In this document: in pieces, positions 4,731 to 24,187 of the stretch
Layout of the letters: the number at the start of each line of letters is the position of its first letter
How positions within the stretch are numbered: position 1 is the stretch's first letter
IMG/VR virus record: IMGVR_UViG_3300025645_000055
Span: 1 to 64,000 of that record
DNA length: 64,000 bases
DNA from: a virus
Direction: 5' to 3' (one strand)
Made by a program: the position numbers and the translations under genes
Notes under the pieces: generated by a model
Seen by the model: the letters and a program-made list of their open reading frames with translations, nothing else
Told to the model about the DNA's origin: nothing
Database searches by the model: none

Positions 4731-5229
4731 AACCATTAAAAAGGTTACTGGTTAGAGAGTCAAAGCGTAAGTTTTGGCTTGAAAGGTTCAATTCCTTTCG
4801 AAACCCTTCACGGGGTTTTGATTTTACCTTTTCAGATTAATATTTTTATTATAATTGGGTGTATAGCTTAGTGGTAGAGCACGGATATTACTTCGTGTGA
4901 TTTATAAGTGTTTACATTTTATCCATATACTGGAGTTACTGGCCTTTTTAAGCCCGTGGCGGAGGTTCGATTCCTTCTGCACCCACTAAAAATTGAAACC
5001 ATAGTTTGAGTTACTATACGAAAAAAAAAAGATACTCTTTCTGATTTATTCAATTTTTTTAACATAAAAAAATTAACCATTGTTAAGGTTACTAAACTAT
5101 ATTTAAATTGTAAAAACTACCTTAACAGATTTCTAATTTTTTTTTTATATAAATATTAACCATTGAGAGGGTTACTCCAACGGTCTGTCCCGAAAGGGCT
5201 TGCCGTTACCAAAGCCACCTTTTCAGATT
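4731..5229 (+). repeat. array of five structured RNA modules (AACCAT-9nt stem-TACT ... stem-GATT)
   Basis: Units at 4731-4838, 4890-4940 (permuted, inside a tRNA), 4997-5046, 5075-5131 and 5158-5229, with compensatory stem changes. Confidence 0.8.
4857..4985 (+). tRNA. tRNA-Lys(TTT)-like gene interrupted by a ~57-nt insertion in the anticodon stem
   Basis: Acceptor GGGTGTA/TGCACCC, D-arm GCTT-AGTGGTA-GAGC, T-arm GGAGG-TTCGATT-CCTTC; CGG^GC...CTTTTTAA-GCCCG with insert 4885-4941. Confidence 0.7.
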
Positions 5230-11297: not shown

Positions 11298-13139
11298 ATG
11301 AGTACAGAAAACAATGGATTAATTTCAAGAGACAAAGGAATGTTCTCGAAAATGACACCCTTATTAAAAGTGATATTGGTGGTAGCAGTTTTAGCAATAG
11401 TAGGAGTGGCTGTTTGGTTTGCTGCACCTGGATTAAGGGTTTCGGCTTCTCAATCGTTAGATGAACTAACATTGGATGACACGAAATTAGACAATCAATC
11501 AGATTCAAACTTGATTGTATTACCAACAACAAGACCTTCTAATAAGGTTCAAAGTACACCTCAAGTGACTATTGGAACTTATGCTTGGAATGGTTTAACA
11601 CCTCTTGCGGCTGCAACTGGTGGTCCTTTTACAACAAAAGGTTCTTTAATGGAAACTAATGGTGTAAACTTAAGAATTGTACGTCAAGACTGGTTATCTG
11701 GTTTACGTGAAATGCAAATGAAGTTCATCGAACAATTTGATGCTGGACAAGAATTCCCAGACTCTGATAGAGCTGCAATGGGAATTACAATAATGGGTGA
11801 TGGAGCACCTTTCTATATCTCCACAATGCAAGGAGCATTAGATGCTAAGTTTGGTAAGGGTAAATATCATGTTGAAGTGGTAGGTGCATTTGGAATGTCA
11901 GATGGTGAAGATAAGGTGATTGGTCCACAAGAGTGGAAAACTAATCCTAAATCAATGATTGGGGCATTAATCTCAACAGTACCAGGTGATGGTGACTGGG
12001 TTACATTGTTAAACTATTGTTTTGCAAATGGACTTAAGGTTAATCCAGACTTTAATACTTATGATGCAGATGCAGTAAATATTTTTCCATCTAAGGATGA
12101 TGATTACATCAACTCTGCGAAAGAGTTAATCGCTTCTCAAACAGAAGGATTTACAGTATCACTTAAAGTGGTTAAAGATGGTCAACTTACTGGTGAAACA
12201 ATTCAAAAAGAAATTGATGGTTGTGCAACTTGGACACCTGGAGATAAAATGGTGTTTGATGCATTGGTTGGATATACTGATATTGCATCAACAAGAGACT
12301 TCCCAAATCAAATGGCAACAACACTTATAGTTGTTAAAGAATGGGCATCTACACATCCAGAGATTGTTTCAAATATTCTTAAGTCGGCATTAACGGCTGC
12401 TAATCAAATCAAACAATATGATGAATGGGCAGTTAGAGGTTCAGAAGCTATTGAAGCAACTTTTAAAGTAGAAACACCACAATACTGGTATGATATGTTT
12501 AAAGGTCAAACTGGAACTAAGAATGGTATTACATACAATATGGGTGGTACGAGAGTACTTAACTATGCAGATGTAATGCAATACTACGGTATCACAGATG
12601 GTACTAATAGATATAAAGCAGTTTATAATCAAGTATCGGGTTACTTAGTAAACCTTAATCCTTTTGGATTTAACGAATCGGTTGATGGTATTGTACCTTA
12701 CGCAGATGCAGTTAACTTGTTCTACCTTAAGAACATCAATGATATTGATGCTGGTACAACAGTAGAGGTTGATTATACAACAACAAAAACAGAAGTATTA
12801 GCAGATGGAGATTGGTATATCAACTTCAACACTGGTAGTGCAGAGATATTAGGTTCATCTAATACAGACTTAGCTTCGATATATAATTTGTTAGTTCAAG
12901 CAGAACAAACAAAGATATTAGTTAGTGGTCATACAGATAGTACTGGTAGTGCTAGTGTTAACTTCCCTCTTTCAGAGAGCAGAGCAAACTCTGTTGTTAA
13001 CTACTTAGTTAAACGAGGTATCTCAAGAGATAGAATACAAGAAGTAAGTGGTAAAGGAGATTCTGAACCAATTGCATCTAATGGTACGAATAGTGGTAGA
13101 GCGACTAATCGTAGAGTACAAGTAACATTTGTTCAATAA
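11298..13139 (+). CDS. ABC substrate-binding protein (NMT1/SsuA-like) fused to an OmpA C-terminal peptidoglycan-binding domain
   Basis: N-terminal TM, S.GEDK...ATWTPGD binding-protein fold; C-terminal FNTGSA...GHTDSTG...NFPLSESRA...NRRV. Confidence 0.85.
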   Translation: MSTENNGLISRDKGMFSKMTPLLKVILVVAVLAIVGVAVWFAAPGLRVSASQSLDELTLDDTKLDNQSDSNLIVLPTTRPSNKVQSTPQVTIGTYAWNGLTPLAAATGGPFTTKGSLMETNGVNLRIVRQDWLSGLREMQMKFIEQFDAGQEFPDSDRAAMGITIMGDGAPFYISTMQGALDAKFGKGKYHVEVVGAFGMSDGEDKVIGPQEWKTNPKSMIGALISTVPGDGDWVTLLNYCFANGLKVNPDFNTYDADAVNIFPSKDDDYINSAKELIASQTEGFTVSLKVVKDGQLTGETIQKEIDGCATWTPGDKMVFDALVGYTDIASTRDFPNQMATTLIVVKEWASTHPEIVSNILKSALTAANQIKQYDEWAVRGSEAIEATFKVETPQYWYDMFKGQTGTKNGITYNMGGTRVLNYADVMQYYGITDGTNRYKAVYNQVSGYLVNLNPFGFNESVDGIVPYADAVNLFYLKNINDIDAGTTVEVDYTTTKTEVLADGDWYINFNTGSAEILGSSNTDLASIYNLLVQAEQTKILVSGHTDSTGSASVNFPLSESRANSVVNYLVKRGISRDRIQEVSGKGDSEPIASNGTNSGRATNRRVQVTFVQ

Positions 13140-13855: not shown

Positions 13856-15616
13856 ATGAAATTAAAACAATTATTATTATTCGGAATTTTAACCTTAGTA
13901 ATGGGGTTAACAAATGTTAACGCACAAGACTTTTATCTAAACGCTAATGGTGTCACTTGTATGTGTCCAACGGCAAATATTGGTGATAGTGGTGTTGTTA
14001 ATGGTGTTACCTATACTAAAAGAATCGCAACCGAAATAACCGATGTGAACGCATCTACTACTTGTACGAGTGGTATAACAGATATGTCATATTTGTTTGA
14101 TTCTCATTTTTCTTTTAATGGTGACATTGGAAGTTGGGATGTGAGTGATGTTATAAATATGAGTGGGATGTTTTGGGTTGCAACTGATTTTAACCAAAAT
14201 ATAGGAAGTTGGGATGTAAGTAATGTTATTAATATGGACAATATGTTTCGAGAAACAACTTCATTCAATCAATATTTGGGGGATTGGGATGTAAGTAATG
14301 TGATTAATATGGAGGTTATATTTTATGAATCACAATCTATTAATCAAGATTTTAGTAATTGGCAATTTAATCCTAATGTTAATTTGAATTATTTATTCAG
14401 TAAATCTGGGTTGGATACTGATAATTATGATTCCTTATTACAATCCTTTGTGAATCAGAATCTTTTAAATAAAGAGATGGTTGCTGAAGATTTAACATAT
14501 TGTAATGAAACCCCCAGAAATGAATTACTCAATAATATGGGGTGGATAATTACTGAAGATTTATATCTTCAACCTAATTTAGTAGCACCAATTAATCTAA
14601 ATATTGAACCCAACCCAACGACTTGTGTTGCTACTGGTGTAGACCTTGGCACACCATCCACTACAAATGGGTGTGGTGTTGGTGTTGTGACTAATAACGC
14701 ACCTACTGAGTTCCCAATAGGTGAAACAATAGTTACTTGGACACTTACTGATGGAAATGGTATTACGGATACAGACACACAACTTGTTACAGTTACATTA
14801 TCTGTTGATGTTGCTGAGGTTTGTTATGTGACCAGTGATGATGTTGTGGTAACTAATAATAGAATCTTTCTTTTTAATATCGATGGTCAAAATGTTGACA
14901 ATTACGAAGTATTAAGAGAAACAACAACGGGTGGAGTTTATGAAACAATAGGTTTTATCATACCACCAGCAAATTCATTTTTAGACACTACTTCCAATAA
15001 TAACACTCAAGCATATCGTTACAAAGTTCAAACTTTAGATGTGTGTGGTGCAATGTCAATTGAATCACCTTATCATAAAACAATATTATTACAAAGTAGT
15101 ATTGCAGCAAATCAAACAATAAATCTTAGTTGGACACCATATGTTGGTACTGATTATACCACATATAATATTTTCAAACAGATTAATGGTGGAACGTTTG
15201 AATTATTCACTTCAATAGCTTCAACGAATTTAACATATAATGATATTGATGTGGACATAGCATTAAATGACTATGCATACTTTGTTTCAATTGATGTTGG
15301 TGGTTGTGTCGGAACACCATTTATGTCAGAGTCGATTAAATCAAATCAAGATGGTACATTAATACTTGGTATTAATGATAATGAACAATTGGAAAAATCA
15401 ATTATATTATTTCCAAATCCAACGAGTTCAATAGTTAATATTGAATTACCAGATGATTTAACATTAAATGAAGTTAATATAATAAACAATCTTGGTCAAA
15501 TAGTTGCCCAATATAATAGTAAGTCTTTTAATATCGAAGCATTATCAACTGGATTATATTTTTTAAATATCAATACCAGTAAAGGAAGTTTCGTTAAACG
15601 TTTAATTAAAAACTAA
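13856..15616 (+). CDS. BspA/DUF285 repeat surface protein with HYR-like domain and T9SS (Por) C-terminal sorting domain
   Basis: Signal peptide; FNQ.IGSWDVSNV.NM repeats; NNAP..FPIGET.VTWT.TD; LFPNPTSS...LSTGLYFL.I...KRLIK. Confidence 0.9.
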   Translation: MKLKQLLLFGILTLVMGLTNVNAQDFYLNANGVTCMCPTANIGDSGVVNGVTYTKRIATEITDVNASTTCTSGITDMSYLFDSHFSFNGDIGSWDVSDVINMSGMFWVATDFNQNIGSWDVSNVINMDNMFRETTSFNQYLGDWDVSNVINMEVIFYESQSINQDFSNWQFNPNVNLNYLFSKSGLDTDNYDSLLQSFVNQNLLNKEMVAEDLTYCNETPRNELLNNMGWIITEDLYLQPNLVAPINLNIEPNPTTCVATGVDLGTPSTTNGCGVGVVTNNAPTEFPIGETIVTWTLTDGNGITDTDTQLVTVTLSVDVAEVCYVTSDDVVVTNNRIFLFNIDGQNVDNYEVLRETTTGGVYETIGFIIPPANSFLDTTSNNNTQAYRYKVQTLDVCGAMSIESPYHKTILLQSSIAANQTINLSWTPYVGTDYTTYNIFKQINGGTFELFTSIASTNLTYNDIDVDIALNDYAYFVSIDVGGCVGTPFMSESIKSNQDGTLILGINDNEQLEKSIILFPNPTSSIVNIELPDDLTLNEVNIINNLGQIVAQYNSKSFNIEALSTGLYFLNINTSKGSFVKRLIKN

Positions 15617-15623
15617 AAACATT

Positions 15624-16391
15624 ATGAAAATATTAAAACCTTTTGAGGTTGTAGAAACAAAAACAAAATATGCTATCATATTTGGGTGGTTATTATTGTT
15701 ATTTGGAAGTTGGTTATGGTATGGTTTATCAGAAACCCATATGTTCCCAACACTTCCACAAGTTGGTGATGGATTTGTGGGTCTGTGGAATGAAGGGTTA
15801 GTAACCCACATATTTAGTTCACTAGCACTTTGTGGTAAAGCAGTGGTATTAGCAATCATAGTTGCATTATCATTTGTTTATTTATCACCATTACCATTAA
15901 TTCAACCAATAGCACATATGTTATCTAAATTTAGATATCTACCACTTACTGGTGTTGCTTTTTATATTACAATGGTTATTTCTGGTGGACGAAGTATTCA
16001 AGTATGGATACTTGTGGTATTTATGACAACATATTTAACCACCTCACTTTTATCGATGTTAAAAGACATTAAAGAAGAAGAATTTGACCACGCTAGAGCA
16101 CTTGGGTGTAACAGATGGGAAATACTTTGGGAAGTAGTTGTTAAAGGTAGATTAGATTATGTAATCGAAATGGTTAGACAAAACCTTGCTATCGTATGGA
16201 TGATGCTTGTTACAGTAGAAAGTATTATGGCATCGGCTGGTGGACTTGGATTTCTTATTAAGAATTCAGATAAGTTCATGAATCACGGTAGAATCATTGC
16301 ATTACAAATAGTAATATTAGGTGTAGGACTTAGTATGGATTATTTTCTTACAACAACAAGAAGATTATTATTTAGATATTCAAAAATATAA
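15624..16391 (+). CDS. ABC transporter permease (NitT/TauT type)
   Basis: Multiple TM helices; ARALG EAA-like loop; W..LV..E....GGLG. Confidence 0.88.
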   Translation: MKILKPFEVVETKTKYAIIFGWLLLLFGSWLWYGLSETHMFPTLPQVGDGFVGLWNEGLVTHIFSSLALCGKAVVLAIIVALSFVYLSPLPLIQPIAHMLSKFRYLPLTGVAFYITMVISGGRSIQVWILVVFMTTYLTTSLLSMLKDIKEEEFDHARALGCNRWEILWEVVVKGRLDYVIEMVRQNLAIVWMMLVTVESIMASAGGLGFLIKNSDKFMNHGRIIALQIVILGVGLSMDYFLTTTRRLLFRYSKI

Positions 16392-16394
16392 ATT

Positions 16395-16556
16395 ATGACT
16401 AAAAAAAACCATTTCGGGTTTTGGTTAATAATATTAGGTCTAATACATTTGATGTTAACATTAATATTTGAAGGACAATTTGGTATTGATATGGCGTGGT
16501 ATTGGTTTATCATTAGTTTAACAACGATATTCATTGGAATATATTTATACGAATAA
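16395..16556 (+). CDS. small membrane protein (53 aa)
   Basis: ORF read by eye: MTKKNHFGFWLIILG...; two hydrophobic segments. Confidence 0.55.
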   Translation: MTKKNHFGFWLIILGLIHLMLTLIFEGQFGIDMAWYWFIISLTTIFIGIYLYE

Positions 16557-16558
16557 TT

Positions 16559-16864
16559 ATGAAGTTTACAAGAGAACAATTTGACGAATTAGGACCCCTT
16601 CATGTAGATGATTTTCCTATTGATAGTTCCAACCAAGATATAATGTTTAATCTATTCAATAGTCTAGATGAATATCTTCAAGGAATGGCACTTCAACACG
16701 GTTTTAGTGATAGTGTTTTTAGAGACGATTTATTTGAGTGTTTATGTGATAAACTATTAGGTATGACTTGTGAAGAATACTATAAGAGTGATATTGGTAA
16801 GGATTATTTTGATAATGGTGAAACAATAGAACTTGATTTTACCATTATCAAGGGGTGGATATAA
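16559..16864 (+). CDS. hypothetical protein
   Basis: ORF track. Confidence 0.65.
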   Translation: MKFTREQFDELGPLHVDDFPIDSSNQDIMFNLFNSLDEYLQGMALQHGFSDSVFRDDLFECLCDKLLGMTCEEYYKSDIGKDYFDNGETIELDFTIIKGWI

Positions 16865-16892
16865 AATATTAATAATATAAATAATTAAAAAC

Positions 16893-17723
16893 ATGCAATA
16901 CGAATTAAAAGACACTATATTATATTTAGACAAAGTTGAGTTAGGATATGGTAGTGGTAAAAATTATAAAACAGTCCTTAAGGATGTTAATATAGTTGAA
17001 AAAGATGTGGTTAGAGATGGTCATGTAACGGGTCAAGTGATTGCCGTTGTTGGAAGAAGTGGTAGGGGAAAGTCTACCCTATTTAAAGCCATGACTGGTC
17101 TTGTAAAACCTCATAGTGGGGAAGCATTGATTACTGAGTTGGATAGTCCAGAGGGTGATGATGCAAAGAATGTAGAAGAGGGTGATGTAGGTTTTGTAGA
17201 CCAGAAATATACCTTATTCAGACATAAGACAGTTGAACAAATATTTCGCTACGCACTTAGAAAAAGTGGATTAACCAAGGTTGAGAAAACTGAAAAGGTT
17301 AATCGATATTTAGGTGAGTGGGGATTAGAAAAACAACGTAAGCAATACCCGATTGAATTATCTGGTGGGCAAAGACAACGTACTGCAATCATTGAACAAA
17401 TTCTTTCATCTGGACACTTTATGGTATTAGATGAACCGTTCTCTGGATTGGATGTTGGAAACATTAGAGATGTAAAAAGGTCTATCGAATTAATTAAGAA
17501 AGACCACGAATTAAACACTATCATCTTCTCAACACATGAGTTAAGACTTGCAGTTGAATTGGCAGATAGTATATATGTAGTTGGTTACCCAGAGGGAACA
17601 ACTGATTATGCGACAATCGTTAAACATTACGATTTAAAAGAAATGGGAATAGCTTGGACAGAGTATGGTCAAGCCCACATTGATTTAGTTGCAGATATTG
17701 ATAATACAATGATGAATTCATAA
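16893..17723 (+). CDS. ABC transporter ATP-binding protein
   Basis: Walker A GRSGRGKST, LSGGQ signature, Walker B VLDEPFSGLD, H-loop. Confidence 0.95.
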   Translation: MQYELKDTILYLDKVELGYGSGKNYKTVLKDVNIVEKDVVRDGHVTGQVIAVVGRSGRGKSTLFKAMTGLVKPHSGEALITELDSPEGDDAKNVEEGDVGFVDQKYTLFRHKTVEQIFRYALRKSGLTKVEKTEKVNRYLGEWGLEKQRKQYPIELSGGQRQRTAIIEQILSSGHFMVLDEPFSGLDVGNIRDVKRSIELIKKDHELNTIIFSTHELRLAVELADSIYVVGYPEGTTDYATIVKHYDLKEMGIAWTEYGQAHIDLVADIDNTMMNS

Positions 17724-18440
17724 ATGGCAAGAGAAACCTTACTTAGTGGAAAAGCATATGATAATTGTGAAATGCAATCTATCAATGGTGATTTTTTAGC
17801 TTTTACCAGCTTCAAAAGAATGAATTGGTATGTTAGTAGAGGTTTAGCCGAAGTTATTGATGACAACAAGTATCAATTAAATTTTGTGACCAATGGGGAT
17901 TTCGGTGATAAGAGTGATTACTATCGATTAAAACTAGAGAATAAATGTGTTATATGTGGTGATGAAGATAATTTAACTAAGCACCACATCGTACCATATC
18001 AATTTAGAAAGTTTATTCCAATGAAATATAAAAAGGGGTTATCCCGTGATGTGGTTTGTATATGCCATGGTTGTCATAAAGATTATGAAACAATAGCAGA
18101 CATCTTTAAGGAAGAACTACTAATCAAGTATGATTTGGTTGATGACTTAAATATTAGTAACACCCTTGGTAAGTATTTTAATACACTTAAGAATTATAGT
18201 CACTATCAAACTAAAGAAACAATAGAACGTTTATCTAGTTTTATAACAACACATGTTGGTAGACCAATTGATGAAGTACTTAAAGATGATTGGTTAGAAA
18301 CAGTCGATACTTCTAAAAAATTGGTTGATTTAGTTAATGTTGATGACTTTATTATTTTATGGAGAAACCATTTTATAGAAACAACAGAACCAAAGTACTT
18401 ACCAGAAGAATGGGTTAAGGACATAAATAGAGTAATATAA
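17724..18440 (+). CDS. HNH-type protein resembling the C-terminal domain of eukaryotic EXD2
   Basis: YDNC...WY...GL; ENKCVICG...HHIVPYQFRK...DVVCICHGCH; WRNHF...PKYLP..W. Confidence 0.7.
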   Translation: MARETLLSGKAYDNCEMQSINGDFLAFTSFKRMNWYVSRGLAEVIDDNKYQLNFVTNGDFGDKSDYYRLKLENKCVICGDEDNLTKHHIVPYQFRKFIPMKYKKGLSRDVVCICHGCHKDYETIADIFKEELLIKYDLVDDLNISNTLGKYFNTLKNYSHYQTKETIERLSSFITTHVGRPIDEVLKDDWLETVDTSKKLVDLVNVDDFIILWRNHFIETTEPKYLPEEWVKDINRVI

Positions 18441-18619
18441 TGGCAGAAAGAAAAACAAAGTGTGATGTGTGTGATAGTACTAAATTTATAATTCAACATA
18501 CTATACCCCAAAAAATGTTAGTCAAACAATTACAAATGGTACAAGCTAAATGTATATGTGGTAATATTTTTGAGTTCGTAAGACGCACACCTGGAGTGGG
18601 TAGAGGCAGAATTCTATAA
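18440..18619 (+). CDS. small zinc-ribbon protein (59 aa)
   Basis: MAERKTKCDVCDS...KCICGN read by eye. Confidence 0.55.
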   Translation: MAERKTKCDVCDSTKFIIQHTIPQKMLVKQLQMVQAKCICGNIFEFVRRTPGVGRGRIL

Positions 18620-18646
18620 ATTTTTTAAAAGTTTTTCCAAAAAGAC

Positions 18647-18973
18647 TTGCTTTTTATAAAAAGTTGTCTTATATTTGTACCATAATAATTACAATGACTT
18701 GTAGTCGGGGGCTTCTAATCAAACGGGAGTTATACGTAATCATACTGGAAATGGAAGTGTAAGTCTTCCCAGGTCAACAAAAAAAAATAAATTAAAAGTT
18801 TTTTAAATAAAACTTGCTTTATTAAAATAATAGTTCTATATTTGCACTGTTGTTAATTTGAAAGACAACGAAAAAAAATATATTAAAAGTTTTTTAAAAA
18901 AAACTTGCTTTATTAAAATAATAGTCTTATATTTGCAGAGTCGTTTAGAAATAGATGACACGTTCATTAAAAT
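18647..18973 (+). promoter_or_regulatory. three tandem promoters plus a boxA-like element
   Basis: TATATTTG at 18670, 18837 and 18928, each with upstream CTTGCTTT; ~55-bp direct repeat 18791-18846 / 18882-18937; GTTCATTAAAAT at 18962. Confidence 0.75.
18695..18777 (+). ncRNA. degenerate tRNA-like element
   Basis: TGACTTG/CAGGTCA closing stem; T-like arm GGAAG-TGTAAGT-CTTCC; lies just downstream of a promoter. Confidence 0.4.
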
Positions 18974-18980
18974 ATTGAAA

Positions 18981-19960
18981 ATATGGGGTGCTTATACTCC
19001 AGTCTTCGGACAAGGATAGACCAGCAATGGTTTAAAGTAGTAGATTTAGTGTCTATTGCGTTGCATTAACCCTTCGGGGTTAGACAATCCACGTAAGCAT
19101 GATTACCAAACCGTATCAAGGGCATCTGCTGAGATACGAAACCCACAACTTATGGGGATTGAGTAGAAATACAATAGTAAGGTAGTTAGAATCAGATATC
19201 CTAAAAGGGGGTATTGTTTGACTAAACGGTGTAAAAGCTATTGGTTGGATTCATTAAGAAATTTTATGGGACTTATCTTCGGGTAATAAGTGAAATGATT
19301 AACATGATGGTAAAACATTATATCGAGGCGTTGTATTCTTAACCACTCAAAAGGTGGCACGAATGTCAACCAGCAGACACGTCTTGAAACTTAGAGTGAG
19401 GCTTATACCAGAGTTAAATGGTGCATTTTTTTTTGATAAAAATAAAAAGAGAAAGTTCTGTTGGACTAGAACTGAAAATTAAGTTATGCCGTTGAAATAT
19501 ATGGCTGGTTGATTCCTCTCAAGGGATGAGATTAAATTTGATGAGTACATGTCATAAGGAACGGGGTCGCACTCGTTTATTCTCGCAAGGAACCTGGGCA
19601 AAGAAAGCTAGATTATATAAGTTCTATGTAGCAGAGTTATGGTCACTCTAAGACCAACTTAATGTTATCTACTTGAAGGAAACTGATAGTGTGTGAAAAA
19701 GCTGAAAGGCATATAAATGATAACGGGGGCAACCCACTTGCTGAACACTCAAGCATAAATCTGGGCGTACTACTTCAACTTGTTGGAGGGAGTGCAATAG
19801 GTTCAAATCCTTTTACGCCCACTAAATTATATTTCGAGAGTACTAGATAACAAATTCCAGTCGATGTACTCGTTAAGAACCTATCCGCAAGATAGGAATA
19901 TACCCAAGAGTAATGGATTGTGAGGGAATTGTATAATTTAAACTAAGAATCTCATCATAT
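18981..19960 (+). ncRNA. large structured ncRNA, GOLLD-like candidate
   Basis: ~980 nt with no ORF of 60 aa or more; many UUCG/GNRA hairpins; GCGTTGTATTC...CTCAAAAG (19328-19353) and AATCTCA (19948) recall GOLLD landmarks from memory; next to tRNA cluster; boundaries approximate. Confidence 0.55.
19763..19821 (+). ncRNA. 59-nt D-armless tRNA-like mini-RNA (copy 1)
   Basis: GGGCGTA/TACGCCC acceptor, one central hairpin, T-loop TTCAAAT. Confidence 0.65.
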
Positions 19961-20016
19961 GGATGAATATAAGCTTTGTAATGAAGATTATTTTAAATAA
20001 GTTGAGGTTTTTAAAC

Positions 20017-20085
20017 GGGGATTTCGTCTAAGACAAAGGCAGCACCACACCAGGTGTTAATGAAGTATCGAACCTTCAATCCCCA
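20017..20085 (+). ncRNA. atypical tRNA-like RNA with 6-nt anticodon loop ACACCA
   Basis: GGGGATT/AATCCCC; GCACC-ACACCA-GGTGT; T-arm TGAAG-TATCGAAC-CTTCA. Confidence 0.6.
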
Positions 20086-20165
20086 CAAATATAGTTGGTT
20101 GGACTATAATAGGATTATGGTACCCCTTTGAAGGGTTTAATGTTAGAAACTTAATTTTATAAACT

Positions 20166-20233
20166 GCGAGTTTCGTCTAAGCTAAGACGCTATCCCACCA
20201 GATAGAAATGAAGTATCGAATCTTCGACTTGCA
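20166..20233 (+). ncRNA. atypical tRNA-like RNA with 6-nt anticodon loop CCACCA
   Basis: GCGAGTT/GACTTGC; CTATC-CCACCA-GATAG; T-arm GAAG-TATCGAAT-CTTC. Confidence 0.6.
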
Positions 20234-20238
20234 CAAAT

Positions 20239-20406
20239 TTTGAAGTGGTGAAAGGAAGACACCCTACGGAATATAAAACTGTCCTTTGAGAATGGTGTGT
20301 GGAGCAACTGTGATTAGTACCTCCAACAGTAAAGTAGAGTCTAACCGACTAATAATCAAAAAGTCGGAACAATTAGAATAGTTAGTTTCATGGCTAACCT
20401 TCAAAA
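20239..20406 (+). ncRNA. enlarged Leu-like tRNA-like RNA (168 nt)
   Basis: TTTGAAG/CTTCAAA; D-arm GTG-AAAGGAAGA-CAC; CTAC/GTAG enclosing a long insert; CCGACT/AGTCGG arm; T-like GTTAG/CTAAC. Confidence 0.45.
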
Positions 20407-20408
20407 AT

Positions 20409-20467
20409 GGGCGTACTATCACAAGTTATTGTGAGAAGTGTGTTAGGTTTAAATCCTTTTACGCCCA
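20409..20467 (+). ncRNA. 59-nt D-armless tRNA-like mini-RNA (copy 2)
   Basis: Same acceptor and 3-prime end as copy 1; central hairpin TCACAA-GTTA-TTGTGA. Confidence 0.65.
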
Positions 20468-20497
20468 CTATAGTTTCGAAAACTTAAATTGAGAAAC

Positions 20498-20572
20498 CGA
20501 GAGGTAGCTCAGTTTGCTCAGAGCGTCACCCATTGGGGGTGGAGGTCGTTGGTTCGAATCCAACCCTCTCGA
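20498..20572 (+). tRNA. tRNA with Pro-like body; anticodon ambiguous (loop CATTGGG)
   Basis: C1-G72, A73; TCACC-CATTGGG-GGTGG gives A33 and TTG in standard register, TGG if shifted by one. Confidence 0.7.
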
Positions 20573-20661
20573 CAAAAATTAAAATAAATTAACAAAAAAC
20601 GTAACTTTAATATAGTTACACATATTTAATAGAAAGGGATAAACCCTAAACAATAGAAATT

Positions 20662-20766
20662 ATGATGAATTATACGACAACATATCAAAAGCAGTATCCG
20701 CAAGGGGGGAAACCTAGTGGGCTGGACTTGTCGTGTATTTACTCTAAAGGTAAAACAGGTGTGTAA
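20662..20766 (+). CDS. putative leader peptide (34 aa)
   Basis: MMNYTTTYQKQYPQGGKPSGLDLSCIYSKGKTGV, followed by a terminator. Confidence 0.4.
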   Translation: MMNYTTTYQKQYPQGGKPSGLDLSCIYSKGKTGV

Positions 20767-20793
20767 ATAAATCAATTACATAACTTAAACGGT

Positions 20794-20829
20794 AAGCTCA
20801 GCTATAAAGAAATTTAGTTGGGCTTTTTT
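20794..20829 (+). terminator. rho-independent terminator inside the tRNA cluster
   Basis: AAGCTCAGCTA...TAGTTGGGCTT followed by TTTT. Confidence 0.7.
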
Positions 20830-20845
20830 CATGCCCAAATTTCAA

Positions 20846-20940
20846 CGGGTAATGTGCGAGTGGTTTAAGCAATCGGTCTTGGAAGCCGATGACAATTTCA
20901 AGAAGGTTATTGTCCGTAGGTTCGAATCCTACTTACCCGA
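20846..20940 (+). tRNA. tRNA with TGG (Pro) anticodon and long variable arm
   Basis: CGGGTAA/TTACCCG; TCGGT-CT TGG AA-GCCGA; V-arm GACAAT/ATTGTC. Confidence 0.8.
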
Positions 20941-20948
20941 CTAAACAT

Positions 20949-21021
20949 CGGGATGTATATCAATTGGTAGATTACGTGCTTTGGGAGTACGAGGTTGCTG
21001 GTTCGAGTCCAGTCATCCCGA
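20949..21021 (+). tRNA. tRNA-Pro(TGG)
   Basis: CGGGATG/CATCCCG; CGTGC-TT TGG GA-GTACG. Confidence 0.92.
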
Positions 21022-21031
21022 CAGAATGAAA

Positions 21032-21043
21032 GTTCATTGACAT
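21032..21043 (+). promoter_or_regulatory. boxA-like antitermination element
   Basis: GTTCATTGACAT resembles rRNA-operon boxA sequences. Confidence 0.55.
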
Positions 21044-21117
21044 GTTGGTTAAGTAAAATATAGAAGTCTAGGGAGCCATTGCTCTTAAAACGTCCAACCT
21101 AGAAACTTCTATAATAT

Positions 21118-21190
21118 TGGGATATGGTGTAATTGGTAACACGTCTGTTTTTGGTGCAGAAGAGTATGGGTTCGAGACCCGTTGTCCCAA
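21118..21190 (+). tRNA. tRNA-Gln(TTG)
   Basis: TGGGATA/TGTCCCA; TCTGT-TT TTG GT-GCAGA. Confidence 0.9.
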
Positions 21191-21197
21191 CTAATAT

Positions 21198-21270
21198 TGC
21201 CCTATGGTATAACGGTTAATACGTCTGGTTTTGAACCAGAAGATTGGGGGTTCGAATCCGTCTAGGGTAA
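21198..21270 (+). tRNA. tRNA-Gln(TTG)
   Basis: TGCCCTA/TAGGGTA; TCTGG-TT TTG AA-CCAGA. Confidence 0.88.
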
Positions 21271-21343
21271 CAATAAAGATATTTGGGAGACTGTTATTAA
21301 TTCATAGAACCTATTGCGAGTGGTATCATAGAATTAAAATTAT

Positions 21344-21416
21344 TGGGGTATGGTGTAATGTGTAACATTCAAGATTTTGGTCCTTGAGAGTGTCGGTTCG
21401 AGTCCGTCTACCCCAA
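21344..21416 (+). tRNA. tRNA-Gln(TTG)
   Basis: TGGGGTA/TACCCCA; CAAGA-TT TTG GT-CCTTG. Confidence 0.85.
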
Positions 21417-21417
21417 C

Positions 21418-21563
21418 TATATTGTGTGCGTAACTAAGGTATTTAGGAGTATACATAACAAGTAGTTGACTTAGTACTATCAATGAAAAGTATGTGGAAA
21501 ATGATACAGTTTGAACGGAATCCCATGTTGGGGAGAGATATGAGTGCAAGCCTCATCAATATA
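21418..21563 (+). ncRNA. enlarged tRNA-like element
   Basis: TATATTG/CAATATA closing stem with adjacent T-like arm ATGAG-TGCAAGC-CTCAT. Confidence 0.35.
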
Positions 21564-21567
21564 AATT

Positions 21568-21649
21568 GGGAGTATTGAGCAACTGGTTGCTCAGCAGACT
21601 GTAAATCTGTGGTCTTACGACATTGGGGGTTCGAATCCCTCTACTCCCA
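21568..21649 (+). tRNA. tRNA-Tyr(GTA)
   Basis: GGGAGTA/TACTCCC; GCAGA-CT GTA AA-TCTGT; V-arm. Confidence 0.92.
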
Positions 21650-21654
21650 CAATT

Positions 21655-21735
21655 GGGAACTAAAAGCCATTCGGATATGGCATCGGGACTGTAAATCTCG
21701 TCCTTCGGGGAGTGGTTCGAGTCCACTAGGTCCCA
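21655..21735 (+). tRNA. tRNA-Tyr(GTA), atypical D-arm
   Basis: CGGGA-CT GTA AA-TCTCG; V-arm CC-TTCG-GG; T-arm AGTGG/CCACT. Confidence 0.8.
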
Positions 21736-21808
21736 CAATTGGTCACAGATGAAACGACCAGTCTTCACAGAAAGACTTCCTCATGAGGGGATATAAATAA
21801 AGCTGCAT

Positions 21809-21878
21809 GGGTTGTGAAAGGATACTAGCCGAGGTTGTAACCCTCTAGCTTTGTAGGGTTCGAGTCCCTATCAGCCCA
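21809..21878 (+). tRNA. degenerate tRNA-Tyr(GTA)
   Basis: GGGTTG/CAGCCC; GAGG-TT GTA AC-CCTC; T-arm TAGGG/CCCTA; no clear D-stem. Confidence 0.55.
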
Positions 21879-21883
21879 CAACT

Positions 21884-22016
21884 TGACTATAATTGGTCGG
21901 CAATGTTAATGTAGTGTTTGAGAGCAAACCGTATAATCTCGGCAAACCATCATTAATGAATGAGTTATGTATGTTACATCATAACCTTTTGTGGGGTTCG
22001 ACTCCCCAATGGTCAA
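21884..22016 (+). ncRNA. enlarged tRNA-like RNA (133 nt)
   Basis: TGACTAT/ATGGTCA; T-arm TGGGG-TTCGACT-CCCCA; long arm GTTAATG/CATTAAT, GTTTG/CAAAC; V-arm GTTATG/CATAAC. Confidence 0.6.
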
Positions 22017-22056
22017 CACGCTAGGCTAGTAAGTGTCCAACACGCTAGGCTAATAT

Positions 22057-22128
22057 TCCTTCGTAACTCAGAGGCAGAGTACCGTGCTTTTAACACGGGA
22101 GTCGTGATATCGTAATTCACCGAGGGAA
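22057..22128 (+). tRNA. tRNA-Lys(TTT)
   Basis: TCCTTCG/CGAGGGA; CCGTG-CT TTT AA-CACGG; atypical T-loop. Confidence 0.82.
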
Positions 22129-22207
22129 CAAAAATTAGTAGCATATGCTCGATGAACGACTATGTACATGTAAGTAGGGATACTAGTCATGTTACTAATT
22201 TTAATTT

Positions 22208-22280
22208 GCACCCGAAGCTCAAGTGGACGGGCTTCCCGCTTTTAACGGGAAGGTTACGGGTTCGAGGCCCGTGGGGTGCA
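22208..22280 (+). tRNA. tRNA-Lys(TTT)
   Basis: GCACCC/GGGTGC; TCCCG-CT TTT AA-CGGGA. Confidence 0.88.
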
Positions 22281-22285
22281 CAAAT

Positions 22286-22369
22286 GCGATGTTAGTGTAA
22301 GTCAAAGATTCTAGATTAAACACGCAACCCATAGGGGTTGAGATGGGGGTTCAAGTCCTTTGCATCGCT
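22286..22369 (+). ncRNA. atypical tRNA-like RNA (Gly-like acceptor, enlarged D-loop, 6-nt anticodon loop)
   Basis: GCGATGT/GCATCGC-U73; CAACC-CATAGG-GGTTG. Confidence 0.55.
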
Positions 22370-22374
22370 CAAAT

Positions 22375-22468
22375 GATAGTATAGTGAAATATTCTGTGTA
22401 GACGTACATATAAAAATCACACCTTCTGCTTAGGTTGGAATAATTGGTATGAAATCCAATTACTATCT
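22375..22468 (+). ncRNA. degenerate tRNA-like element
   Basis: GATAGTA/TACTATC; T-like ATTGG-TATGAAAT-CCAAT; enlarged D region. Confidence 0.4.
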
Positions 22469-22473
22469 TAATT

Positions 22474-22544
22474 GCCGATATCGTATAACGGTATTACGTG
22501 CCCTTGGTAGGGGTGAAATCTCAGCTCGTTTCTGAGTATCGGCT
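22474..22544 (+). tRNA. tRNA-Thr(GGT)
   Basis: GCCGATA/TATCGGC; TGCCC-TT GGT AG-GGGTG; atypical T-loop CTCGTTT. Confidence 0.8.
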
Positions 22545-22703
22545 CTAAGTTTATTAATAAGTGGGTAAAACCTTGAGGCATCCCCCTCGGACTATGACGG
22601 CTTATATTTGACGATATAAGTGTTCAAGTTTCTGGTCAAGCAATGCACCAGGTTTGGTGGAATCACCTTACAAAAGCGAGGATTAATATTAATAGACTTA
22701 ACT

Positions 22704-22786
22704 GCGAATATCGTATAATGGAGGGGAAACCCGTATTATAGTGGCCTTCCAAGTCACGGATGAGAGTTCGATTCTCTCTATTCGCT
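22704..22786 (+). tRNA. tRNA-Gly(TCC) with GAAA hairpin in the D-loop
   Basis: GCGAATA/TATTCGC; GTGGC-CT TCC AA-GTCAC; GGG-GAAA-CCC insert. Confidence 0.85.
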
Positions 22787-22794
22787 CAATAATT

Positions 22795-22881
22795 GCCTCT
22801 ATAGCTCAGTTGGTTTGGCGAAAGCCTTAGAGCAGCCCCCTTTTAAGGGGCAGGTCGTAGGTTCGAATCCTACTGGGGGTA
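22795..22881 (+). tRNA. tRNA-Lys(TTT) with GAAA hairpin in the D-loop
   Basis: GCCCC-CT TTT AA-GGGGC; GGC-GAAA-GCC insert. Confidence 0.85.
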
Positions 22882-22940
22882 CTAAGTTAGTTATGACATT
22901 ATGATTTGAGGCTTAATCATCCTCTTTAACTAACTTTATT

Positions 22941-23011
22941 GCGAGATGTAGCTTAATGGCAAAGCATCGGCCTTCCAAGTCGAGGATGCGGTTCGACCCC
23001 GACATTTCGCA
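22941..23011 (+). tRNA. tRNA-Gly(TCC), 8/4-like acceptor/T stems
   Basis: GCGAGATG/CATTTCGC (8 bp); TCGGC-CT TCC AA-GTCGA; short T-stem. Confidence 0.8.
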
Positions 23012-23019
23012 CTAAAAAT

Positions 23020-23102
23020 GCCCCCCTAGTATAATGGAGACGAAAGTCGTATTACCTTGGATTTGTAACCCAAAGATATCAGTTCGATTCTGATGGGGGG
23101 CT
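23020..23102 (+). tRNA. tRNA-Thr(TGT) with GAAA hairpin in the D-loop
   Basis: GCCCCCC/GGGGGGC; TTGGA-TT TGT AA-CCCAA; GAC-GAAA-GTC insert. Confidence 0.85.
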
Positions 23103-23110
23103 CCATACCA

Positions 23111-23195
23111 GCCGATGTCGCATAGTGGTCTATTGCACTTGATTTGTAATCAAGAGAAAGAAATTTCATCGTCAGTTCGAATCTGACCATCGGCT
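23111..23195 (+). tRNA. tRNA-Thr(TGT) with long variable arm
   Basis: GCCGATG/CATCGGC; CTTGA-TT TGT AA-TCAAG; V-arm GAAA-GAAA-TTTC. Confidence 0.85.
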
Positions 23196-23210
23196 CACAT
23201 ATTTATTAGT

Positions 23211-23672
23211 ATGAAAAACTTAATCAACAAAATCTGGGCGTTCATCAAACTAATGCTACCTAATAGCTGGTTTCCAGAAGACGTAATAATTTACGCTATC
23301 GAAGATGATATGAAATCGTGGAAACTTATTGAAGTTCTCATTGTTAGAGAAATAAATAAGTATAGAATCGAAAATGGTCTTAAACCAGTATCTGGTGAGT
23401 TAAACACCAAGCTAGAAACAAAGATAAGAAGCGACTTTATGTCGGATGAAGAAAAACTATCCCACGATGGTTTTGGTGTATCATCAAGAAGACTTAAAGA
23501 TATGGGGTTTAAAAGTGTTGGTGAAATTATAGCCTATGGTTATACAAATGGTGGTGATGTGGTTCATGCTTGGAAAAATAGTCCAAGTCATAATCGTGTA
23601 TTACTTGGAAATTATAAATACCTGGGTGTTAGTAAAACTGATAGATATTATTGTGTAATATTTACCAGATAA
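23211..23672 (+). CDS. CAP (SCP) domain protein
   Basis: INKYR..NGL...LSHDG...GEIIAYG...WKNSPSH..VLL. Confidence 0.9.
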   Translation: MKNLINKIWAFIKLMLPNSWFPEDVIIYAIEDDMKSWKLIEVLIVREINKYRIENGLKPVSGELNTKLETKIRSDFMSDEEKLSHDGFGVSSRRLKDMGFKSVGEIIAYGYTNGGDVVHAWKNSPSHNRVLLGNYKYLGVSKTDRYYCVIFTR

Positions 23673-23674
23673 AT

Positions 23675-23787
23675 GCGAGTGTAGCTCAGTTGGTTAGAGC
23701 GTTATTTAAATCATGCGGGAGTAGCTCAATGGTAGAGCGATACGTTACCAACGTATAGGTTGAGGGTTCGAATCTGATTACTCGCCA
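23675..23787 (+). pseudogene. chimeric tRNA-Gly-like locus: orphan 5-prime half (23675-23701) plus tRNA body with ACC anticodon (23715-23787)
   Basis: ATACG-TT ACC AA-CGTAT; T-stem unpaired; 3-prime TACTCGC pairs better with upstream GCGAGTG. Confidence 0.6.
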
Positions 23788-23791
23788 AATT

Positions 23792-23819
23792 AAGGATGAC
23801 ATAAATGTTATCCTTTTTT
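23792..23819 (+). terminator. terminator closing the tRNA cluster
   Basis: AAGGATGACAT-AA-ATGTTATCCTT followed by a T run. Confidence 0.75.
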
Positions 23820-23947
23820 ATTTGTTTTATTCGATTAATTGAACTATATTTGTTAAATGATAGGAGTATGAGTCCGTACATAAAAATTGGTCGAATAGGA
23901 CATCGCTACCAAAACCTATCATTTTTTAATAAATAAAACAAAGAATT

Positions 23948-24187
23948 ATGATTAGAATTATTAAAGTATTAATGGATTTCGGGATGGATTTTGAATATGA
24001 AAATCGTGGGTCTGAAGGTGAGAAGATTGTTTCCTATGAACTAGGGTTAGATATATCCAACCAAAATGGTAAGATATATTACTCTTGTGGTTGTGAACCA
24101 GAAACAGTTGAAGATGTAGATTTTGAATACATGCGACTTGCTAGTGAAGTACAAGACGAATGTATCGCACAAACAGCATCCTTTTAA
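23948..24187 (+). CDS. hypothetical protein
   Basis: ORF track. Confidence 0.65.
   Translation: MIRIIKVLMDFGMDFEYENRGSEGEKIVSYELGLDISNQNGKIYYSCGCEPETVEDVDFEYMRLASEVQDECIAQTASF

Follow-up and report, generated by a model that had tools for sequence, protein, structure and literature searches.

A strongly diverged GOLLD-family RNA at a tRNA array in a fragment of a very large phage

Introduction

GOLLD RNAs are found in phages and prophages near transfer RNA (tRNA) islands; they combine a conserved 3′ region with a variable 5′ region, sometimes hold tRNAs in the linker, and form cages (PMC12286853). Two cages have been solved, the 14-mer of env-38 and the 12-mer of the Streptococcus agalactiae RNA, whose 3′ domain alone forms a 10-mer. 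The S. agalactiae RNA is without P21b and several 5′ helices, and differences in the peripheral helices have been linked to the number of chains per cage (PMC12990946). In mycobacteria, GOLLDs are reported to include a pseudo-tRNA, and the tRNA clusters in which they are located also have an HNH endonuclease (PMC6582537). ROOL, which is also phage-borne near tRNA islands (PMC12286853), and OLE are likewise large ornate RNAs. The solved GOLLD structure is striking. Here we analyze a stretch of 64,000 nucleotides (the window), which is the first 64 kb of the 73,385-base viral record IMGVR_UViG_3300025645_000055, and describe an RNA of about 814 nucleotides (nt) at positions 18941–19754 of its plus strand. 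Its best explanation, which we consider very probable, is that of a strongly diverged GOLLD-family member of a huge phage, placed in a tRNA array. In a non-exhaustive search of the literature, we found no paper tying GOLLD to huge phages or to Bacteroidota.

A preliminary description of the window, made from its letters, had proposed a non-coding RNA of about 1 kb at 18981–19960, either a GOLLD relative or a new large RNA, and had placed a mini tRNA-like element inside it. As detailed below, the single structured RNA stands, its limits are moved, and the tRNA-like element falls outside it.

Results and discussion

The 3′ domain matches the GOLLD family model from end to end

The Rfam model for GOLLD, RF02032, has a curated gathering cut-off of 150 bits. 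On E-value thresholds, the complete model (positions 1–416 of 416) aligned to 19323–19755 with a score of 57.1 bits and an E-value of 1.1e-13, or 8.5e-16 in the whole 73 kb record. No match to ROOL, OLE or other large-RNA families was found in 18400–20600 at E-values up to 10. The comparison with Rfam that had been proposed for this region thus gave GOLLD, though under the curated cut-off, and of the two options left by the preliminary description the GOLLD relative is supported by this E-value, by the relatives, by covariation, by the gene context and by the canonical GOLLDs of the nearest phages.

Relatives were collected with motif patterns. The 5′-domain motif pattern common to the window and two large-phage GOLLDs matched 16 viral contigs, 12 of which hold canonical GOLLDs with scores of 265–294 bits, mostly on contigs of 175–483 kb; the other four have no GOLLD and were chance matches in coding sequence. 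A C-variant of this pattern gave 43 matches in metagenome contigs, four of them genuine (L064 and three TARA contigs that share one sequence, L055), and a second pattern gave 25, two of them genuine (L095 and L097, identical over the compared 1,100 nt). The remaining 39 and 23 matches were without GOLLD and were treated as chance. Finally, a third pattern with five matches added L104 and L105; L103, which resembles L104, is cut off after 47 nt of RNA. In all, five distinct relatives were thus obtained, from viral contigs and from contigs of lake and marine origin. Identity to the window amounts to 97.9% over 991 nt for L064 and to around 65–82% in blocks for L055. From ATGGGG to the last loop, the six clade members measure 772–872 nt, and the length of the window’s RNA, counted from its inferred start, agrees with the roughly 800 nt expected of a GOLLD.

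Besides the window, three of the relatives matched RF02032 over its full length (L055 with 72.7, L095 with 65.9 and L064 with 55.4 bits). In these four clade members the E-values lie between 1e-13 and 1e-17, and the helix assignment is identical. For this clade, RF02032 works at the limit of its detection range. Blastn of 18600–20500 against GenBank phages matched nothing, and a pattern of linker and junction with fixed spacing, drawn from what the window and the Rfam consensus share, was found in none of the viral contigs, though the window itself matches it. Two scans of a genome collection of species representatives detected no host-genome or prophage copy; the first had no match, and all three genome pattern matches were without GOLLD and were treated as chance.

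Regarding the nearest phages, the best matches of a 639-amino-acid nuclease encoded in the window (42–43% identity) lie in uncultured phage records of 634,780 and 642,428 bases. Both of these records hold a canonical GOLLD, with 287.3 and 275.3 bits, respectively. A third phage record, of 636,363 bases, has no GOLLD, and no close relatives of the nuclease were found among viral contigs.

The RNA has a covarying two-domain fold

A consensus structure predicted with alifold from four sequences contained 155 pairs, 48 of them compensatory. The alignment of all six clade members (A4) gave 166 pairs in 33 helices with 95.8% of the cells paired, 59 pairs changed on both sides and a covariation score of 0.438, counts that are inflated because one alignment served for both prediction and counting and because its six sequences come from around four lineages. 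In slid controls, with the partners shifted by 1–3 columns, pairing dropped to 38–44%, with 6–9 compensatory pairs and scores of 0.07–0.09. None of 500 shuffles of A4 reached the observed values on four of five measures; the fifth, further pair types, was not exceeded (133 of 500). Across the 3′ half, the helices derived from the clade coincide with RF02032 helix positions, each with one to four compensatory pairs, so that the six-sequence structure rebuilds most helices of the GOLLD 3′ domain (Table 1). The terminal hairpin also covaries within the clade (GCU/AGC, CGC/GCG and GGC/GCC). Next to the hairpin that the clade has added, the neighbouring hairpin of the Rfam consensus (model positions around 251–266) is missing in the window and L055.

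The plus strand folds to −219.4 kcal/mol (z −1.75, none of 20 shuffles as good), and the minus strand folds no better than its shuffles (z +0.20, 8 of 20 as good). The five capped hairpins listed in the preliminary description are all present in the sequence, and the region is free of long open reading frames (ORFs) as it had claimed, the longest one overlapping 18900–20000 on either strand having at most 53 amino acids. It had also called the region richer in G+C than its flanks, which holds against the 600 bases upstream (0.34–0.41 over 18900–19950 versus 0.25–0.31) and fails against the downstream tRNA array, which is equally G+C-rich.

Table 1. Coordinates and supporting evidence of the RNA, its parts and the elements around it
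Feature	Position	Strand	Evidence or description
Third promoter copy	18866–18945	+	TTG 18905–18907; TATATTTG 18928–18935
Divergent GOLLD-family RNA, ~814 nt	18941–19754	+	Rfam match, covariation, RNA-library contigs
5′ domain	18983–19322	+	motif distances; motifs and hairpins collinear with 12 canonical GOLLDs
5′ junction, closing helix GUGCUUAU (18988–18995)/GUAAGCAU (19093–19100)	18988–19100	+	alifold, six sequences
UUCG hairpin inside 5′ junction	19002–19013	+	covarying
GCAA hairpin inside 5′ junction	19021–19032	+	covarying
Hairpin inside 5′ junction	19037–19059	+	covarying
UUCG hairpin inside 5′ junction	19060–19088	+	covarying
3′ domain, end-to-end RF02032 match	19323–19755	+	57.1 bits, E 1.1e-13
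Long first hairpin with UCAAAAG loop	19323–19387	+	alifold and Rfam
A/U-rich variable linker after first 3′-domain hairpin	19388–19462	+	aligned to Rfam model ~70–137
Linker segment CUUAGAGUGA	19389–19398	+	perfect complement of hairpin loop 19644–19653
Long-range closing helix	19466–19472/19621–19627	+	alifold and Rfam
Hairpins of the 3′ domain	19488–19505 and 19506–19534	+	alifold and Rfam
Clade-specific added hairpin beside CGCAA hairpin	19560–19577	+	insertion in Rfam alignments of window and L055; 3 compensatory pairs
CGCAA-capped hairpin	19581–19590	+	alifold and Rfam
Hairpin with loop UCACUCUAAG (19644–19653)	19639–19657	+	helix 19639–19644/19652–19657, 3 compensatory pairs
Nested set of helices	19663–19725	+	alifold and Rfam
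Mini tRNA-like element 1	19763–19823	+	acceptor GGGCGUA/UACGCCC (7 bp), hairpin CUUCAA-CUUG-UUGGAG, T-arm-like AGG-UUCAAAU-CCU, then ACU
Cloverleaf tRNA look-alike A	20017–20085	+	fold; 6-nt ‘anticodon’ loop ACACCA, T loop UAUCGAAC
Cloverleaf tRNA look-alike B	20166–20233	+	fold; 6-nt loop CCACCA; repeat family D3
Conserved non-coding stretch ‘X’	20243–20402	+	begins AAGUGGUGAAA directly 3′ of tRNA look-alike; contains UAGAGUCUAACC
Mini tRNA-like element 2	20409–20469	+	78% identical to element 1; inner hairpin changed on both sides (UCACAA/UUGUGA)

The 5′ domain and the linker

The 5′ domains of the clade and of canonical GOLLDs present the same order of parts: the GCUUAU/GUAAGC junction helix, a GNRA hairpin, UAAAGU, a hairpin, UGCG and another hairpin. 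The same GCUUAU...GUAAGC letters are paired in the canonical model structure. The closing helix of the junction is invariant within the clade, and covariation therefore speaks neither for nor against it. Between the GCUUAU motif and the 3′ domain there are 333 nt in the window, compared with 385–435 nt in canonical huge-phage GOLLDs.

We built a covariance model (R1) from the 5′ blocks of the 12 canonical huge-phage GOLLDs only. Its top four matches in the relatives are the 5′ starts of L104, L105, L055 and L095, with 29.1, 26.1, 22.6 and 20.6 bits and E-values from 1.3e-4 to 9.6e-3. In the opposite direction, an nhmmer profile of the clade’s 5′ domains finds the canonical ones, with a best E-value of 0.0021 and eight of the ten best matches at the expected place.

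The linker has no tRNA inside and corresponds to the disordered linker in the cage interior of the solved GOLLD. Most of the differences between the window and L064 are concentrated in it. Its complementarity to the hairpin loop in the 3′ domain amounts to ten Watson-Crick pairs, which none of 2000 linker shuffles reaches; this match is present in the window and L064 (two of six members) and absent from the other four. It may be a counterpart of the kissing contact between loop and linker that GOLLD uses between chains, although the loop involved is perhaps a different one from that of the solved RNA.

Comparison with canonical GOLLDs

We took as canonical the GOLLDs of the 634–642 kb phage records LR745206.1 and LR756502.1 and of the 12 IMG/VR huge-phage contigs. 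With them the window shares the two-domain layout, the first 3′ hairpin with its UCAAAAG loop, the A/U-rich variable linker and the long-range closing helix. Hairpins with CGCAA-type caps occur in both, and the loop of the terminal hairpin is conserved (GAACACUCA in the window, GUAAUCUCA in the canonical RNAs). Also shared are the GCUUAU/GUAAGC junction, the GNRA hairpin and the UAAAGU and UGCG motifs of the 5′ domain, as well as the location at an array of phage tRNAs and the tRNA look-alike that comes immediately after the RNA. The differences are equally clear: the window scores 57 bits instead of 265–294 and is invisible to sequence-only profiles; its 5′ domain is around 60–100 nt shorter and has an additional UUCG hairpin; one 3′-domain hairpin is lost and another gained; and the RNA has a putative promoter of its own instead of an upstream tRNA-Met, which ARAGORN called upstream of the 5′ domain in 8 of the 12 canonical loci. 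The window’s RNA thus belongs to a divergent GOLLD branch under the curated threshold; its peripheral helices are altered, a putative promoter of its own precedes it, and the tRNA-like element on its 3′ side is degenerate. By these comparisons, the two solved cages belong to the same family. Like the S. agalactiae RNA (PMC12990946), the window’s RNA is without peripheral consensus helices, though not necessarily the same ones.

Promoter and 5′ end

Upstream of the RNA, a promoter block occurs in three direct copies (18608–18687, 18775–18854 and 18866–18945). The spacing of TTG and TATATTTG in the third copy fits the Bacteroidota-type −33/−7 layout. Among the clade members that have upstream sequence, all five carry a TATATTTGCA box 47–56 nt 5′ of the conserved ATGGGGTGC (ATGGGGUGC). 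The RNA likely starts near 18941, from the third copy; an alternative 5′ end around 18850, from the second copy, could also be used. In run X3 the RNA contig begins at 18862, ahead of the third copy, and covers 18938–19037, where X6 and X8 lack a contig; such a gap proves nothing about the 5′ end. As for the other copies, the first is followed by around 90 nt of unannotated sequence (18688–18774) and the second by just a short hairpin and an A run.

The RNA has high-depth contigs in RNA libraries, which end before the tRNA-like element

The stretch is present in 22 of 24 listed runs from 19 studies; 12 are RNA libraries, mostly from fresh water. We compared three RNA runs and one DNA run over 16001–24000, using the depth of assembled contigs, which is one mean per contig. 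The RNA is covered by contigs at 18862–19696 (word depth 381), 19040–19657 (1218) and 19038–19726 (1235), with a further one at 19698–19753. Elsewhere in the same RNA runs, on the neighbouring genes and downstream, the contigs differ little or not at all from the window and have depths of 2–7, and the DNA run is flat at around 4–7. Within the same RNA runs, contigs over the RNA are 40–300 times deeper than those of the downstream part. One RNA contig of depth 30.5 bridges 19698–20112, and transcription therefore continues through the mini tRNA. The depth bin holding this element reaches 0–30, compared with 464–1490 in the bin preceding it, and two RNA contigs run into adapter-like letters after 19753 and 19726. 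The picture given by this crude measure is that of an RNA very abundant in lake samples over approximately 18860–19753, with read-through at a much lower steady-state level.

These results change the extent given in the preliminary description. One structured RNA is indeed present, but it spans from around 18941 (or an upstream promoter copy) to around 19754, that is, some 0.8 kb. The segment 19824–19960, assigned there to the RNA, lies outside both the covarying structure and the high-depth contigs, and the mini tRNA-like element, which does exist at 19763–19823, is located 3′ of the RNA end.

The tRNA-like 3′ flank

In its predicted fold, mini tRNA-like element 1 lacks both a D arm and a 7-nt anticodon loop. 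It scores 17.3 bits with the Rfam tRNA model RF00005 (cut-off 29) and is not called by ARAGORN, which leaves it outside the definition of a tRNA. Its acceptor helix (helix 33 of the clade structure) shows four compensatory pairs across the clade. An exact search for its 3′ half gave no match in viral contigs. A tRNA or look-alike starts 5–10 nt past the GOLLD 3′ end in 9 of the 12 canonical loci and in each of the six members of the clade; the remaining three canonical loci have a terminator after the GOLLD end. Regarding the other members of the clade, the element of L105 (8664–8735) passes the Rfam tRNA cut-off with 44.6 bits and is not called by ARAGORN; those of L055 and L095 fold into cloverleaves with tetraloop-like ‘anticodon’ arms; and that of L104 shows partial acceptor pairing in a reading by eye only. 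Read by eye, the anticodon loop of the L105 element seemingly has 8 nt and contains UCA.

One could argue that the tRNA-like element does not signal processing but stays in the mature RNA as a working part, for instance as a covalently attached cargo or handle. Its position is kept in six of six clade members, and tRNAs are reported to be embedded in some GOLLDs (PMC12286853; PMC12990946; PMC6582537). According to the same sources, however, the embedded tRNAs sit in the linker and not at the 3′ end, and here the high-depth contigs stop earlier (at 19696, 19657, 19726 and 19753), with the fall in bin depth described above. We therefore regard a working part as improbable and favour a processing signal.

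Further tRNA look-alikes and a conserved stretch downstream

Beyond the first mini tRNA, the window contains the cloverleaf look-alikes A and B, called neither by ARAGORN nor by Rfam; the 3′ half of B is 77% identical to that of A. Their T loops read UAUCGAAY, and the same unusual T loop occurs in the post-GOLLD elements of L095 and L104. The stretch that we call ‘X’ follows look-alike B and has no Rfam match. Its WAGTGGTKAA motif stands directly after the tRNA-like element in 8 of the 12 canonical GOLLD loci and in the TARA relative. Examples of ‘X’ are L055 971–1140 and, in the canonical locus L005, 2025–2100, and its hairpins vary between loci with pairing kept. Mini tRNA-like element 2 comes next and is followed by a tRNA-Gln gene at 20498. 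In L064, the mini tRNA directly after GOLLD (2847–2907) has the sequence of the window’s element 2, which suggests a possible exchange between the two mini tRNA copies.

How the RNA could be made and what it could do

We propose that the RNA has a Bacteroidota-type promoter of its own and is transcribed from it within a longer transcript that would run on into the tRNA look-alikes and tRNAs. RNase P may then cut 5′ of the anticodon-less mini tRNA (19762/19763), a proposal made because of the geometry of the 3′ flank and the stop of the abundant contigs, and trimming back to the last hairpin would leave the stable RNA. A comparable arrangement is known from animals, where MALAT1, a long stable RNA, obtains its 3′ end by an RNase P cut at a downstream non-decoding tRNA-like structure, mascRNA. 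The likeness lies in the proposed 3′-end formation only, without evolutionary relation, and cleavage in the window is deduced from geometry and contig stops.

Like the two solved GOLLDs, copies of the RNA would join through loop-loop and A-minor contacts and form a closed homo-oligomeric shell, the interior of which would hold the linker. The number of chains may differ from that of the solved RNAs because the peripheral helices differ. At a guess, such a shell might hold or shield translation-related RNA or ribosomes during lytic growth. A wider scheme, which we put forward as unlikely though not negligible, is that the huge-phage GOLLD heads a conserved multi-RNA module composed of GOLLD, an anticodon-less tRNA mimic, the small RNA ‘X’ and a second mimic. 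The mimics would act as RNase P punctuation and be released as small RNAs that act on the host tRNA machinery, for example as anticodon-nuclease decoys or as substrates of CCA-adding or modification, and the shell would store or shield phage tRNA transcripts.

The clade is a natural variant of GOLLD: its 5′ cap domain is shortened, a hairpin is swapped where the half-shells of the solved RNA are joined, and there is the 10-nt loop-linker match. What determines the geometry of the cage can therefore be tested on it directly. Besides, the locus indicates a testable route of GOLLD 3′-end formation, brings in situ evidence in the form of very high RNA depth in natural samples, and reveals that the Rfam cut-off misses a whole lake and marine GOLLD branch.

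Weighing the assignment to GOLLD

Several results count against the assignment of the window to GOLLD. At curated thresholds, the Rfam scan reports only tRNAs in the window, whose RF02032 score is 93 bits under the cut-off; by that rule it is a non-member. Sequence-only nhmmer profiles of the 12 canonical GOLLDs (5′ part, 3′ part and whole) leave the window unmatched, and a sequence profile of the clade’s 3′ domain finds nothing in the canonical loci. Within the clade itself, RF02032 gives a partial match of 32.1 bits on L105 and none on L104 at E-values up to 1e-3. R1 reaches 5.8 bits on the window, with an E-value of 2.6, a non-significant score that is the fifth of 13 weak matches, and has nothing at the right place in L064; the homology of the window’s 5′ domain therefore rests on its sisters and is not direct. 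To these points have to be added the inflation of the covariation counts and the nature of the library data, in which mean contig depth reflects expression poorly and the ends of the RNA cannot be read from contigs.

A rival explanation is a new family of large structured RNAs that is GOLLD-like by convergence or composition. The match would then stem from capped hairpins of a generic kind and from the A-rich linker. This would suit a score of 57 bits against a cut-off of 150, a mean posterior of 0.75 with a bias of 5.7 bits, the match that RF02032 also gives in 1 of 14 control genomes at E-values up to 1, and the blindness of sequence-only profiles to the 3′ domain in both directions. Convergence is nevertheless hard to reconcile with the E-values of the four members that match over the full length with constant helix assignment, with the covarying helices, and with the canonical-only 5′ model matching four sisters. 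The gene context is also the same, and the nearest phages have a canonical GOLLD. We judge convergence to be highly improbable, and homology to GOLLD is retained. The remaining explanation, in which the region has no function of its own and the tRNA operon merely loses it during processing as a long leader or spacer, agrees with the position upstream of the tRNA array, the co-transcription and a promoter triplication suggesting that operon control matters, but the 59 compensatory pairs over around 800 nt across lake and marine relatives, and an RNA far deeper than its downstream part, the opposite of what an unstable spacer should give, make it the least credible of all.

Genome context of the locus

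CheckV estimates a completeness of 20% at 73 kb, and the record is therefore a fragment of a very large phage. ARAGORN detected 27 tRNA genes in the window, split over two arrays. Among the phage genes there are a T5 A1-like DNA transfer protein, a nuclease, a sigma factor and methyltransferases, and the host-like genes include a type IX secretion sorting domain protein and an OmpA-family protein. From these host-like genes and the TAnnTTTG-type promoter boxes, which follow the Bacteroidota promoter consensus, the phage host is probably a member of the Bacteroidota. The host-like envelope and transport genes at 13856–17723 comprise a DUF285 protein with a type IX secretion sorting tail and an ABC permease and ATPase, with the OmpA-family protein lying upstream of them at 11298–13139.

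No ORF of at least 80 amino acids was found between 18511 and 23211. Just 5′ of the promoter blocks, a 238-amino-acid ORF (17724–18440) shows a weak match to an HNH endonuclease (PHROG, E 1.9e-4). The tRNA arrays, at 1–2807 and 20498–23786, contain repeated isoacceptors (Phe, Glu, Asp, Gln, Pro, Tyr, Lys and Gly), and the arrays 3′ of the GOLLDs of L095 and L104 contain largely the same set (Pro, Gln, Tyr, Lys, Thr and Gly). Finally, two Rfam tRNA matches, at 4857–4985 (129 nt, without an ARAGORN call) and 20846–20940 (95 nt), are far longer than a tRNA and may carry insertions or introns.

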